NCBI GenBank assembly: GCA_036826295.1
Contig: DAISWO010000003.1
Span: 42,018 to 106,017 of the forward strand
Direction: 5' to 3'
DNA: 64,000 bases
Origin: Candidatus Saccharimonadota bacterium
GTDB lineage: Bacteria; Patescibacteriota; Saccharimonadia; Saccharimonadales; JAGQNJ01
Under the pieces are notes generated by a model that made no database searches, was not told the origin of the DNA, and saw only the letters and a list, made by a program, of their open reading frames with translations. How positions within the stretch are numbered: the first letter of the stretch is position 1; each line of letters opens with the position of its first letter. Below are positions 52,912 to 56,363 of the stretch, piece by piece. The position numbers were made by a program, and so were the translations under genes.

Positions 52912-55824
52912 CTATCCGGCTTTTTGTATATTAATGGTTAGCTCTGTTCCTTCAAGCTTTACGACTTCTGTATATTTTAGTGCAACTTGTTCGTGTGTGA
53001 GCTTCGAAGCCAGTGTTTCAGAAGCAATGGTAGCTTTATGCTCAGCTATGGCCTGAAGCACTTCTTTATCAGCCGTAACAAGCGATAGCTCTATTCTATC
53101 ATCGACATTCAACTCTGCCTTTTTACGAGCATTTTGTACGTGTCGCACAATCTCTCGCATTAAACCTTCTCGCTGAAGTTCGGGCGTAATCTTTATGTCC
53201 AGCAAAGTGGCTTTCCCAAAACGGACATCCCGAACGTTCACTTCTTCCTTAATGATATCGATATAACCTTGAGCCGTAGCATCAGCTAATCCGCTAATTG
53301 TAAGTGATGAAAGTGGCTGCCGAACCTTAATTTTGGCCTCGCCTCTTTGCGATAAGGCGTCGTTAATGACCTGTCGGGTGTTGGCCATTAACTCAAGCAC
53401 TGACTGATCTTTCTTGGACAGTGTCTCAACTTTTGGCCAGTCACTCAGGTGAACTGATTTCGGTAAACCCGTGCCGTCTGTTAACTCACTCCACAAATAA
53501 TCGCTCAAGAAAGGCGCCCAAGGTGCCAACAGCTGACAGATGCGAACCAGAGTAAACCATAGGGTCTCGTAGGCTTGCTGCTTGTCGGTGTCGTCTTCAG
53601 TCTTCCAGAAACGGCGTCGCGAACGACGAATATACCAATTACTCATATCGTCAATAAGGTTAAAAATCGGCTGGATAGCATGAGCTAATTTGTAATTGTC
53701 GGCCTGCTTAGTTACCTCTTCGATGGTTTCGTTAAGTCGGGCCAACATCCATTGGTCTAGAACGCTGGTGCTTTCTGGTTGCTCGCCGGGGGTCGCTGGT
53801 CCCCAGGCATCGATATCAGCGTACATTTTGAAAAACCGATGTGAGTTCATGAGAGTGCCCAAAACATTACGGTTCAGGTCCTTAAGTGAATCACGGTCAA
53901 AGCGCATATAATCGGCTGTCTGTGTGGCTTGAGTACTCGACAGCAAGAATAGTCGTAAGGTGTCAGCGCCCTCGTCGTTATAAACATCATCGACAGGTGG
54001 ATAGTTCTTGAGTCGTTTGCTCAGCTTTTGACCGTCGGCTGCCATGATCATGCCGTTAACTACGACGTTCTTATAGGCTGGACTATCGAAGAGGATAGTA
54101 TTAACGACATGCTGAACATAAAACCACAACCGAGTTTGATCAAGTCCCTCAATGATAAAGTCGGCTGGAAATGTCTTCTCGAAGGTATCTTTGTTCTCGA
54201 AGGGATAGTGTTGCTGGCCAATACTCATACAGCCCGATTCGAACCAGCAGTCCAAAACCTCTTCGACCCGGTGATAAGTCTTGCCGTCTTTCTCTATAAC
54301 AACATCGTCAACTTTTGGTCGATGGACATCTGATAAATCGAGGTCTTTGTCGCCTGCTAGCTCACGAAGCTTGTCGTAACTATCAATTACTAGGTAGTCG
54401 TCTTCGTCCTCGGTATTAACCCAAATAGGCATTGGCGCACCCCAATAACGATTGCGCGACACTGACCAATCGCGGGCCCCCTCCAACCACTTACCAAATC
54501 GGCCACTCTTGATATTTTCTGGTACCCAGTTAATCTCTTCAGCGGTCCCCATCAGTTGCTCGCGAATGGCTGAAACCTTGATGAACCAACTTGTGATGGC
54601 GTAGTACATCAGAGGTGTTTCGCAACGCCAACAAAATGGATAGGTGTGCGTAAAAGTCAGTGCCGCATACACACGGTCGGCTTTGGTTAGATGTTCGATA
54701 ATGTACTTATCAGCCTTCTTGAAGAAGAAGCCTTTTATTTCATCATAGCCGATATCACCAGTCACCTTACCACTCGCATCGATGGTTTTAAGCACCGGGA
54801 TGTTATGTTCTTGGCCGAGATTTAGATCGTCCTCACCAAAGGCCGGCGCTACATGCAACACTCCTGTTCCATCATCGATGCTAACAAAGTCGGCTGCCCA
54901 GACTTTATAGAGGTTTTCTTTCCCTTCTAAAGTGGCAGCCTCGGCGACTTCAAACAATGATTCATAGCGTTTGCCTACTAGTTCTGTACCGTGAATTTCT
55001 TTCAGAATATGGTAATTATCACTAGAAAGAACTTCGAGGCGTTTCTTCGCCAAGATTATTACTTCTTCCTTGCCGTCGTCGTCTTTGAGCCTTGCATAGA
55101 CATACTCTTCAGTAGGATTAACAGCGATAGCTGCATTTCCCGGCAACGACCAAGGAGTCGTCGTCCAACCCAACAAGAAAGCATCCTCGTCGGCCAATTT
55201 AAACTTCACAAATAAACTAGGGTCAGGCACGTCATCTTTATAACCGTCATTAACCTCGAAATTTGAAAGAGGCGTTTCACAGCGAGGGCAATAGGCCGTG
55301 CTCTTAAATCCTTTGTACAGCAAGCCTTTTTCATTTATCTGACTAAGCGCCCACCACACACTTTCGGTGTAGCTGTTATCAACGGTGGCATAATAGTTAT
55401 CGTACTCGCTCCAACGGCCTAACCGTTGCAACAACACTTCCCACTCGCCCTTGTACTTAAAGATTGAGTCGTTGCAGGCGTTGTTGAACTTCTCTAGCCC
55501 CAGCTCTAAAATCTGCTTCTTACCGCTGACACCAAACTCCTTTTCAATGGCAAACTCCACGGGTAGACCATGGCAGTCCCAGCCATTACGCCTCGGTACG
55601 TAAAAGCCTTGCATAGTTTTATAGCGTAGCACGGAGTCTTTGATAGCTGTCACCAGGCTGTGGCCGAAGTGTGGCAAGCCATTAGCAAACGGTGGGCCAT
55701 CATAAAAACTAAAGAATGGCCCGCCTTTACGCTGTTCCATACTCTTCTCAAATGTCTTATCTGCTTGCCATTTACCAAGAACTGCTTCTTCGATTTTTGC
55801 TAAATTTGATTTTTGCTGTGTCAT
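52912..55824 (-). CDS. ileS: Isoleucine--tRNA ligase, type 2 (eukaryote-like)
   Basis: PPFANGLPHFGH (HIGH-type) and KLSKRLKNYP (KMSKS-type). Start set to ATG 55824 (MTQQKS) with GGAG SD; the track start 55854 is a TTG inside the leader. Confidence 0.92.
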   Translation of the reverse strand: MTQQKSNLAKIEEAVLGKWQADKTFEKSMEQRKGGPFFSFYDGPPFANGLPHFGHSLVTAIKDSVLRYKTMQGFYVPRRNGWDCHGLPVEFAIEKEFGVSGKKQILELGLEKFNNACNDSIFKYKGEWEVLLQRLGRWSEYDNYYATVDNSYTESVWWALSQINEKGLLYKGFKSTAYCPRCETPLSNFEVNDGYKDDVPDPSLFVKFKLADEDAFLLGWTTTPWSLPGNAAIAVNPTEEYVYARLKDDDGKEEVIILAKKRLEVLSSDNYHILKEIHGTELVGKRYESLFEVAEAATLEGKENLYKVWAADFVSIDDGTGVLHVAPAFGEDDLNLGQEHNIPVLKTIDASGKVTGDIGYDEIKGFFFKKADKYIIEHLTKADRVYAALTFTHTYPFCWRCETPLMYYAITSWFIKVSAIREQLMGTAEEINWVPENIKSGRFGKWLEGARDWSVSRNRYWGAPMPIWVNTEDEDDYLVIDSYDKLRELAGDKDLDLSDVHRPKVDDVVIEKDGKTYHRVEEVLDCWFESGCMSIGQQHYPFENKDTFEKTFPADFIIEGLDQTRLWFYVQHVVNTILFDSPAYKNVVVNGMIMAADGQKLSKRLKNYPPVDDVYNDEGADTLRLFLLSSTQATQTADYMRFDRDSLKDLNRNVLGTLMNSHRFFKMYADIDAWGPATPGEQPESTSVLDQWMLARLNETIEEVTKQADNYKLAHAIQPIFNLIDDMSNWYIRRSRRRFWKTEDDTDKQQAYETLWFTLVRICQLLAPWAPFLSDYLWSELTDGTGLPKSVHLSDWPKVETLSKKDQSVLELMANTRQVINDALSQRGEAKIKVRQPLSSLTISGLADATAQGYIDIIKEEVNVRDVRFGKATLLDIKITPELQREGLMREIVRHVQNARKKAELNVDDRIELSLVTADKEVLQAIAEHKATIASETLASKLTHEQVALKYTEVVKLEGTELTINIQKAG

Positions 55825-56070
55825 GTTGCTCCTTTTATAAAACAAATACCTCAAAGGTTTATCTGGATCCGCCAGCTGGCGGAGGTACCATCCAGATTCC
55901 TTTGAGGTGATCTCAAAAGCACTCTTTTTATCAGCTGTTACGGGCTTACCCGGCGAGTTCTAATTTCTGTAACAACAGATTTCTTCTCGCTCCGTTCTCC
56001 TTCGTAGCTTTAGCGAAGGAGGGTCGCAGTTGATGGCTGCTCATAACGGATTGTAGTAATTTCTTACTAA
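55825..56070 (-). promoter_or_regulatory. T-box riboswitch leader of ileS
   Basis: Minus strand 55898..55863 reads AAU CUGGA UGGUACC UCCGCC AGCU GGCGGA UCCAG. This is the T-box consensus with the 7-nt UGGN bulge between two helices. Upstream is a short stem with an internal loop carrying AUU-A (55964..55961). Confidence 0.7.
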
Positions 56071-56075
56071 CCATA

Positions 56076-56104
56076 AATATACCCTATAAACACCTACCGT
56101 TCAA
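56076..56104 (-). promoter_or_regulatory. Sigma-70-like promoter of the ileS T-box leader
   Basis: -35 TTGAAC (56104..56099, inside the end of the upstream ORF), 17-nt spacer, -10 TATATT (56081..56076). Confidence 0.55.
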
Positions 56105-56363
56105 CAAGATACGCAGACACTTCGTCGATTAGTGGCATAGTTTCAGTAGCCCGCCAACTACTAACTAGCTGACCACCGTTATCTAGGGCTACAACCGTTG
56201 GATAACTAACAATATCGTATAGTTCAGCTAATCTGACGCCTTCTTTTGAATCAACATCAAGCAATTCTAGCGCCCTAGAAGTTCGGCGAAGAAAATCTCT
56301 TGCATACTGTTCTACCATTGTCCCATGTTCTGACTGGGGTCTGTAAAGCACAATCACTTTCAT
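56094..56363 (-). CDS. Thioredoxin-fold protein lacking any cysteine
   Basis: 89 aa. VIVLYRPQSEHG sits where WCGPC is expected. The ELYDIVSYPTVVALDNGGQL pattern (cis-Pro loop) is typical of thioredoxins. Zero Cys residues. Confidence 0.6.
   Translation of the reverse strand: MKVIVLYRPQSEHGTMVEQYARDFLRRTSRALELLDVDSKEGVRLAELYDIVSYPTVVALDNGGQLVSSWRATETMPLIDEVSAYLVER

Follow-up and report, generated by a model that had tools for sequence, protein, structure and literature searches.

A T-box leader of ileS in Saccharibacteria with its antiterminator enclosed by a putative terminator that competes with Stem III

The 64,000 nt stretch of Candidatus Saccharimonadota DNA considered here (contig DAISWO010000003.1; in the following, the window) is gene-dense, with about 40% G+C, and encodes on its minus strand an isoleucyl-tRNA synthetase (IleRS) that is 100% identical to an isoleucine--tRNA ligase annotated in Candidatus Saccharibacteria. 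The leader of this ileS gene, which extends over about 56050..55837 on the same strand, 5′ of the ATG at 55824, is, as judged from its sequence, a T-box. Its antiterminator-type element (helix A1, a 7-nt bulge and helix A2) lies intact inside a further helix, the outer or clamp helix, which is followed by a U-rich tract and shares nucleotides with the adjoining Stem III. With moderate confidence, the leader is read here as a transcription-attenuating ileS T-box, the terminator of which would enclose the intact antiterminator and displace Stem III. The features on which this reading turns are the following.

55824..52912, minus strand: ileS coding sequence, 970 aa, ATG at 55824
55837..55847, minus strand: U-rich tract AUUUGUUUUAU, immediately 3′ of the outer helix; of the 10 nt that follow the helix core, 8 are U
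55848..55857, minus strand: outer helix, 3′ arm CCUUUGAGGU, nearly identical to the 5′ arm of Stem III, CUUUUGAG
55899..55908, minus strand: outer helix, 5′ arm ACCUCAAAGG, that is, the last two loop bases and the entire 3′ arm of Stem III
55863..55895, minus strand: antiterminator-type element (A1, 7-nt bulge, A2), with A1 paired in 100% and A2 in 97% of alignment cells and compensatory changes
55884..55890, minus strand: T-box bulge UGGUACC, of which UGGU is complementary to the tRNA 3′ end ACCA
55897..55898, minus strand: AA between Stem III and A1, invariant alignment columns, part of RRRxG-Stem III-AA
55899..55919, minus strand: Stem III, CUUUUGAG, loop AUCAC, CUCAAAGG, 8 bp, -6.9 kcal/mol (arms 55919..55912 and 55906..55899)
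55920..55924, minus strand: 5′ purine string GAGUG, fitting the RRRxG motif ahead of Stem III

Comparison was made with 30 leaders from contigs of Saccharibacteria and related members of the candidate phyla radiation (CPR), a sample of CPR genomes among the matches listed, and with 18 actinobacterial controls; the IleRS proteins of the relatives are 48-89% identical to that of the window. By this comparison the outer helix is real, recurring in 29 of the 30 leaders in many sequences and with strong covariation. The 61-nt nested hairpin of the window has a predicted energy of -34.3 kcal/mol (z = -6.4, 0/200 shuffles as good), the minimum free energy (MFE) fold of the 272-nt leader includes the outer helix around the antiterminator (z = -4.9), and pairing between the two 30-nt flanks of the antiterminator reaches -17.5 kcal/mol versus -7.3 +/- 2.4 with shuffled 3′ flanks (0/500). 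The 30-nt flanks of A1 likewise pair far above shuffles in 26 CPR leaders, with z to -10 and 12 leaders at 0/500; for the actinobacterial controls z ranges from -1.2 to +1.7. Native pairs of 5′ and 3′ arms sum to -396.9 kcal/mol versus -221 +/- 18 for permuted partners (0/10000); both the flank-pairing and the arm-permutation test are alignment-free. Complementarity is kept throughout between arms whose sequences diverge from lineage to lineage: CCUCAAAGG/CCUUUGAGG, CACCUUGAAGG/CUUUCGAGGUG, CCAUCUGGA/UCCGGAUGG, UCCACUUG/CGGGUGGA, CCCUCUCG/CGAGUGGG, GCCUCUCUUGG/CCAAGAGAGGU and AUCACUUCUUUUGG/CUAAAAGAAGUGAU. With the register held fixed in the alignment, both partners vary in 14 of 16 clamp pairs, and pairing is seen in 80.6% of the clamp cells; for the whole structure (clamp, A1 and A2) the paired fraction is 87.9%, versus at most 57% with slid partners, and the covariation score is 0.644 (shuffles, 0.246; slid partners, no more than 0.211). 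This alignment was run through MAFFT with N padding, by which 5 of 29 rows were shifted, lowering rather than raising the counts. An alignment (A3) made with a covariance model (R1) from plain MAFFT was dropped for pair counts, being mis-registered (A1 66% paired, a +1 slide equally good); the model R1 turned up new leaders.

No downstream partner of the 3′ half of the antiterminator was found in the window (-6.6 kcal/mol versus -7.1 +/- 2.2 for shuffles), nor does pairing of the last 14 nt of the antiterminator with downstream sequence emerge in most CPR leaders (z around 0, the best being L007 with -2.3 and L092 with -1.8; leaders are designated by locus number), whereas in the actinobacterial controls CCUCGC pairs with GCGAGGAG, the expected sequestrator. 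The search for a canonical terminator or sequestrator acting on the 3′ strand of A1/A2 gave none; the sole conserved alternative pairing, present in nearly all of the 30 leaders, sets Stem III against the outer helix. When it lacks the 3′ arm, the window RNA folds as Stem III plus antiterminator (-25.4 kcal/mol, 48% of the ensemble), and with the next ~30 nt the clamp replaces Stem III (-37.1 kcal/mol). Over the 30 leaders, addition of the 3′ arm leaves 317 of 328 A1/A2 pairs in place (97%) and abolishes 181 of 195 Stem III pairs (93%). The Stem III and clamp helices are mutually exclusive. A preliminary description of this DNA had nested the antiterminator in a 10-bp outer helix (55908..55899 with 55857..55848) and had seen no downstream sequence able to pair with the antiterminator 3′ half; both statements hold, the one by the shuffles (0/500) and the covariation in related leaders, the other because the energy in the window stays within the shuffle range. 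Its suggestion that Stem III and the clamp helix are the alternative pairings of a switch agrees with the predicted folds of the 30 leaders, and its coordinates for the antiterminator, outer helix, Stem III and an upstream stem were verified base for base on the minus strand.

The discriminator elements around the outer helix are conserved to different degrees. The antiterminator of the window consists of CUGGA (55895..55891), UGGUACC (55890..55884), UCCGCC (55883..55878), AGCU, GGCGGA (55873..55868) and UCCAG (55867..55863), and its helix A1, CUGGA/UCCAG, can be extended to AUCUGGA/UCCAGAU over 55897..55861. AA and UGG.ACC are invariant across the leader alignments; the bulge reads UGGUACC in 29 of 30 leaders and UGGAACC in L095. 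A search for tRNA-Ile genes in the window and 29 loci found none; the match to the discriminator base is a prediction from the bulge sequence. From the UGGAACC bulge of L095 (1289-1382), a tRNA-Ile carrying U73 is predicted for its lineage; in the same locus, repeated GGGUCAGACCC hairpins are found in the long spacer that separates leader and ileS. The motif RRRxG preceding Stem III, as part of RRRxG-Stem III-AA, has been defined before (PMC7583486), and a corresponding (A/G)AGNG stands directly 5′ of the hairpin in 24 of the 30 leaders. RNAalifold, run on 11 leaders as aligned by MAFFT without any fitted offset, recovers Stem III itself; 4 of its 6 pairs are changed on both sides, AU/UA exchanges among them. 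L002, L088 and L011 have no Stem III between an AAGU purine string and AA; there, the 5′ arm of the clamp (GUCCC or CCACC) directly follows the purine string.

As to the output, in the 30 leaders the G/C-containing core of the outer helix measures 10 bp in the median, and a median of 8 of the next 10 nt are U; at least 6 U of 10 are found in 25 of 30, in L096, L095, L012 and L011 the arm that was scored extended into the U-run, and L010 is the one leader without it. The Shine-Dalgarno (SD) sequence and start codon lie 10-25 nt beyond the U-run in most leaders and more than 100 nt beyond it in L093, L095 and L015, and in L085, L086, L096, L002 and L101 another gene is located between the element and ileS (two-gene operon). 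The accessibility of the SD is alike with or without the clamp (mean 0.55 vs 0.49, 26 leaders), for which reason SD sequestration was rejected as the general mechanism. Because of the U-run, the distant starts and intervening genes, and the unchanged SD accessibility, the outer helix is interpreted as part of an intrinsic terminator, not as a sequestrator; helix and U-run together most likely form that terminator, with the helix as its base, an output which the preliminary description had not named and which the comparative data favour. A stable, G+C-containing stem and a U tract, both typical of intrinsic terminators, are present; the short hairpin loop is not. In the folds, the U-run (55837-55847) tends to pair with the A/G-rich stretch 55920-55935, which includes RRRxG, and equivalents occur in other leaders; such pairing would extend the predicted terminator hairpin and would mask the purine latch in the OFF state.

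Individual loci add variation to this picture. L085 (829-922) and L086 (849-942) carry the T-box with clamp upstream of an open reading frame (ORF) of ~190 aa, which is followed by ileS; in L096 (802-894) another ORF separates leader, with its clamp terminator, and ileS; the intervening ORF of L002 (leader at 662-749) starts MKRILVYGDSNTWG and resembles, by eye, an SGNH/GDSL-type hydrolase; in the two closest relatives, L101 (1-54) and L102 (1-60), the leader, cut by the edge of the locus, is upstream of an inserted methyltransferase gene. In L010 (1413-1506) the outer helix pairs CAACCUCCAAUUAAG, located 5′ of Stem III and over the purine string, with CUUAAAGGAGAUUG, burying the SD; the probability of the SD being unpaired is 0.00 there versus 0.34, and the duplex is marginally above shuffles (52/1000). 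L010, a single example, may use the same principle for the control of translation. L015 (1327-1428) is from a contig labelled as a metagenome-assembled genome of Promethearchaeota, that is, of archaea, with a bacterial-type ileS T-box; this contig is probably mis-binned. In L015 it is the 5′ arm of Stem III, not the 3′ arm, with which the 3′ arm of the clamp (GAAAGGC) pairs.

The decoding half, located upstream of these elements, comprises the following features.

55991..56050, minus strand: Stem I region, with base helix UCCGUU (56050..56045) and AACGGA (55996..55991) in the MFE fold
56026..56040, minus strand: ultrashort Stem I specifier hairpin GCAG, loop CCAUCAA (56036..56030), CUGC
55997..56021, minus strand: inserted 8-bp hairpin CUCCUUCG, loop CUAAAGCUA, CGAAGGAG; variable, most relatives without it
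55953..55990, minus strand: Stem II, GCGAG/CUCGC (55990..55986 with 55957..55953), aligned by cmscan to Stem II of RF00230
55934..55952, minus strand: Stem IIA/B, F-box-like, CGGG-UAAG-CCCG-UAACAGC, from the cmscan alignment; pseudoknot putative

The Rfam T-box family RF00230, searched in E-value mode, matches 56014..55861 end to end with 31.5 bits (E = 2.6e-5 for a 501-nt region, 0.0033 for the whole window) and is the sole Rfam match in the window at E <= 0.1; its gathering score is 93, and no Rfam family reaches its gathering threshold across the 64 kb. The covariance-model check is thus positive by E-value and negative by cut-off. The alignment covers Stem II, IIA/B, Stem III and the antiterminator, 82 positions of Stem I being replaced by 5 nt. 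Identity as a T-box, asserted in the preliminary description, is settled by the ileS upstream regions of other genomes, because these share the decoding half motif by motif: the CPR and actinobacterial leaders are collinear through a 4-bp hairpin with NNAUCNN loop, Stem II, IIA/B, (A/G)AGNG, Stem III and AA. The shared order runs from the NNAUCNN hairpin via GAAGAA ... AGUAGAAC to GGGU..GCCCGUnACAGC.

The Ile specifier AUC is located at 56034..56032, with A at 56031 as the next base. Of the 30 leaders, 29 possess such a hairpin, a 4-bp stem closing a 7-nt NNAUCNN loop; AUC never varies among them, and the stem shows covariation (GCAG/CUGC, GUGG/CCAC, GCGG/CCGC, GUAG/CUAC, AUGG/CCAU, AAGG/CCUU), and the actinobacterial ileS leaders have an equivalent, CCGG-CCAUCAC-CCGG. 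Conservation of this hairpin is the reason to place the specifier there. The preliminary description had left the specifier unsettled; AUC in CCAUCAA, the third option it listed, is the one borne out, and AUU in the AAAUUAGAA loop is not. The GCGAG/CUCGC stem, which had been taken for a truncated Stem I bearing that AUU, is Stem II according to both the Rfam alignment and the actinobacterial comparison. Its internal loop has the strands GAAGAAA and AAAUUAGAA (putative S-turn type) and its cap is CUGU-UGUU-ACAG; the motifs GAAGAA ... (A/U)AGUAGAAC are common to CPR and actinobacterial leaders, as is GGGU..GCCCGU(A/C)ACAGC of Stem IIA/B, and for the Stem II S-turn and the IIA/B F-box motifs and cmscan alignment agree at the sequence level. 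The base helix of Stem I, for which the closest relatives carry UCCG/CGGA or UCC/GGA equivalents, encloses the specifier hairpin and the lineage-specific inserted hairpin. The Rfam placement of the Stem I base in the loop of the inserted hairpin was rejected in favour of the conserved AUC hairpin. Insertions are also seen in L088, L105 and L103 at this position or close to it, between specifier hairpin and Stem II, and UUAUGA ... GAA in the Stem I region looks K-turn-like by eye.

Two further features flank the leader.

55829..55834, minus strand: SD AAGGAG, predicted accessibility independent of the clamp
56076..56104, minus strand: promoter-like site TTGAAC, 17-nt spacer, TATATT; consensus match only, 9/12 matches

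The score of 9/12 of the promoter-like site is not above the regional chance count; the site would place the transcript start ~20 nt ahead of the leader, and in relatives TATAGT/TACAAT-like hexamers are located just upstream of the conserved AAUCCGUU start. Between the ribonucleotide reductase (RNR) gene and the leader there is an 89-aa ORF without Pfam match (56094-56363, minus strand), and the gene order RNR, 86-89 aa ORF, leader, ileS, L21, ParA is repeated in L103, L105 and L109. Nearly all long ORFs of the window (1-64000) are on the minus strand, and its GC skew is steadily negative. No tRNA gene was found across the whole 64-kb window.

In the proposed mechanism the decoding half (ultrashort Stem I with AUC, Stem II, IIA/B) would read tRNA-Ile, and uncharged tRNA-Ile would pair with the bulge while the polymerase transcribes the last ~30 nt, thereby fixing Stem III, together with the purines on either side of it, to the antiterminator; so docked, Stem III would withstand strand displacement long enough for the polymerase to pass the U-run, resulting in read-through into ileS. 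With charged tRNA, or none, Stem III would be undocked and mobile, the 3′ arm would displace its 5′ arm, and transcription would stop at the U-run; in this OFF helix the 3′ arm, mimicking the Stem III 5′ arm, would be paired with the Stem III 3′ arm and loop over ~10 bp. Helix A1 would be common to both states. Termination, its dependence on tRNA and the direction of the switch are what we infer here from the elements observed, the extent to which they are conserved and covary, and the fact that the two helices exclude each other. A switch at Stem III is plausible because published work on the homologous discriminator finds its docking both essential and charge-sensitive: the tRNA 3′ end is not bound without Stem III, and the purine string binds only after the tRNA-bulge duplex has formed (PMC7583486); in the ileS T-box of Mycobacterium tuberculosis, uncharged tRNA stabilises the linker and stacked Stem III, and a mimic of charged tRNA leaves Stem III away from the antisequestrator (PMC12647780).

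Other explanations of the same structures have to be considered. That the outer helix is a static closing helix, a constitutive terminator or a stability hairpin, with Stem III versus clamp unregulated and the T-box acting otherwise or decaying as a relic, appears unlikely. It would fit that in every leader the clamp state lies 8-20 kcal/mol below the Stem III state in predicted energy, that three leaders are without Stem III, and that the Rfam score is low; however, canonical T-boxes favour the OFF state as well (on average -19.5 kcal/mol vs -7.4 for ON in TBDB), and a constitutive terminator before an essential single-copy gene, right after its own promoter-like site, would be costly. Furthermore, the AUC hairpin, the Stem II motifs, RRRxG, AA and UGGUACC are all kept across lineages with 48-89% identical IleRS, and a relic is unlikely because it would not have conserved the elements that contact the tRNA.

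Translational control as in Actinobacteria, with the SD hidden or exposed and the U-run serving as a spacer or ribosome standby site, is very improbable, even though the decoding domain has its nearest homologues in translational T-boxes. The SD is buried by CCUCC...AAUUAAG pairing with CUUAA.AGGAG in the outer helix of L010, L007 and L092 show some complementarity of the A2/A1 3′ strand to the SD, and a weak UUGUUUU/GGAGCAA hairpin is predicted in the window; against this stand the equal SD accessibility of 26 leaders in either state, the lack of a conserved downstream partner for the A1 3′ strand, the U-run after the helix in all but L010, and the start codon more than 100 nt away in L093, L095 and L015. 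A further alternative, considered quite improbable, holds that the clamp-closed RNA is the tRNA-binding form, the outer helix taking the place of Stem III and a purine-rich 3′ linker (AUAAA) that of RRRxG, and that the tRNA acts otherwise, for example by sterically slowing completion of the hairpin, or with inverted logic. The nucleotides of the clamp 5′ arm are indeed those of the Stem III 3′ arm and hold the same place with respect to A1, the linker that joins A1 to the 3′ arm of the clamp is A-rich in most leaders, and leaders without Stem III exist. However, RRRxG, being 5′ of Stem III, would leave the junction in the clamp state and tends to pair with the U-run in folds; a terminator stabilised by uncharged tRNA would lower IleRS just when it is needed; and covariation of Stem III as a hairpin would be pointless if it never formed.

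The displacement of Stem III by an enclosing terminator is the preferred reading, and several points weigh against it. Seven leaders have a 3-bp mini Stem III only, and L002, L088 and L011 have none; for these leaders, protecting Stem III does not suffice as an explanation. In its geometry, the clamp extends A1 in much the way that Stem III stacks near it, so that clamp-closed RNA might still bind tRNA. The terminator scan, whose loop limit is 3-8 nt, does not list the site with its 43-nt structured insert, and termination there by the RNA polymerase of Saccharibacteria, at whatever efficiency, is a prediction. The gathering score of Rfam is reached neither by the window leader nor by any of 20 related leaders. 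For the pair counts, the 5′ arm was fixed relative to A1 and one 3′-arm offset was fitted per sequence, and the mis-registered covariance-model alignment gave weak counts. Finally, switching by CPR T-boxes is deduced from sequence and folding.

Compared with known systems, the leader most resembles the translational ileS T-box of Actinobacteria (“class II” in TBDB; M. tuberculosis, M. smegmatis, N. farcinica), which regulates the same gene, encoding a type-2 IleRS, and shares AUC in a 7-nt terminal loop, GAAGAA/AGUAGAAC, GGGU..GCCCGUnACAGC, RRRxG-Stem III-AA and A1/UGGUACC/A2. The ultrashort Stem I with the specifier in its terminal loop and no distal platform is found in the window leader, too. 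In the 18 actinobacterial loci examined, however, the A1 3′ strand CCUCGC pairs with the SD-containing downstream GCGAGGAG and there is no outer helix, while in the leader described here A1/A2 are left whole, Stem III is lost to the competing helix, which precedes a U-run, and the SD is unsequestered. With the canonical transcriptional T-box (RF00230; for example tyrS and glyQS of Bacillus subtilis) the element would share its output, termination versus read-through during transcription, as well as the T-box bulge, Stem III, the purine string and a thermodynamically favoured OFF state. In the canonical T-box, the 5′ strand of the terminator is made up of the 3′ strands of A1/A2, so that A1 is sheared, and sensing is read through A1 (PMC7583486). 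The predicted terminator described here holds A1/A2 unchanged and would unfold Stem III instead; also, its Stem I is without the distal platform for the tRNA elbow and its Rfam score is a third of the gathering cut-off. In the transcriptional switches for ZTP, fluoride and preQ1, a downstream strand copying one strand of an aptamer helix invades unless the ligand locks that helix, the decision being kinetic. The likeness to these switches is one of analogy only, as they sense small molecules and the invaded helix is within the ligand pocket, whereas Stem III is an accessory helix latching a tRNA-mRNA duplex.

The element is therefore proposed, on sequence grounds, to work like a transcriptional T-box with a decoding domain shared with the actinobacterial translational ileS T-box, and without an OFF helix on the 3′ strands of A1/A2. 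The ultrashort-Stem-I model of TBDB (translational ileS) was run on Actinobacteria and otherwise only on finds of the Rfam model with truncated Stem I; this search scope and the sub-threshold score of the Rfam model explain why CPR leaders go unannotated. In the literature searched, subscription-only papers being outside the scope, there was no paper dealing with T-boxes in Saccharibacteria, Patescibacteria, the candidate phyla radiation or TM7, and no description of the arrangement.

In all T-box mechanisms described in the literature consulted, the part of uncharged tRNA is to stabilise A1, the 3′ strand of which is otherwise required by a terminator or sequestrator. A widely conserved, naturally occurring T-box that spares A1 and has its competition at Stem III would differ. 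The chances are about even that Saccharibacteria and neighbouring CPR have a third type of T-box platform, in which Stem III and the purine latch compete with an enclosing terminator and the charge of the tRNA is read via docking of Stem III, not stabilisation of A1, a principle possibly adapted in L010 to hide the ribosome-binding site. Docking of Stem III has been recognised as essential and charge-sensitive only recently; if the proposal is true, docking alone can carry the regulatory decision, and the leader would offer a clean system to measure that step. The relevance is real for riboswitch specialists and modest beyond. For the organisms themselves, the finding places T-box regulation in Saccharibacteria and related CPR and points to direct sensing of isoleucine charging in these reduced, host-dependent bacteria.

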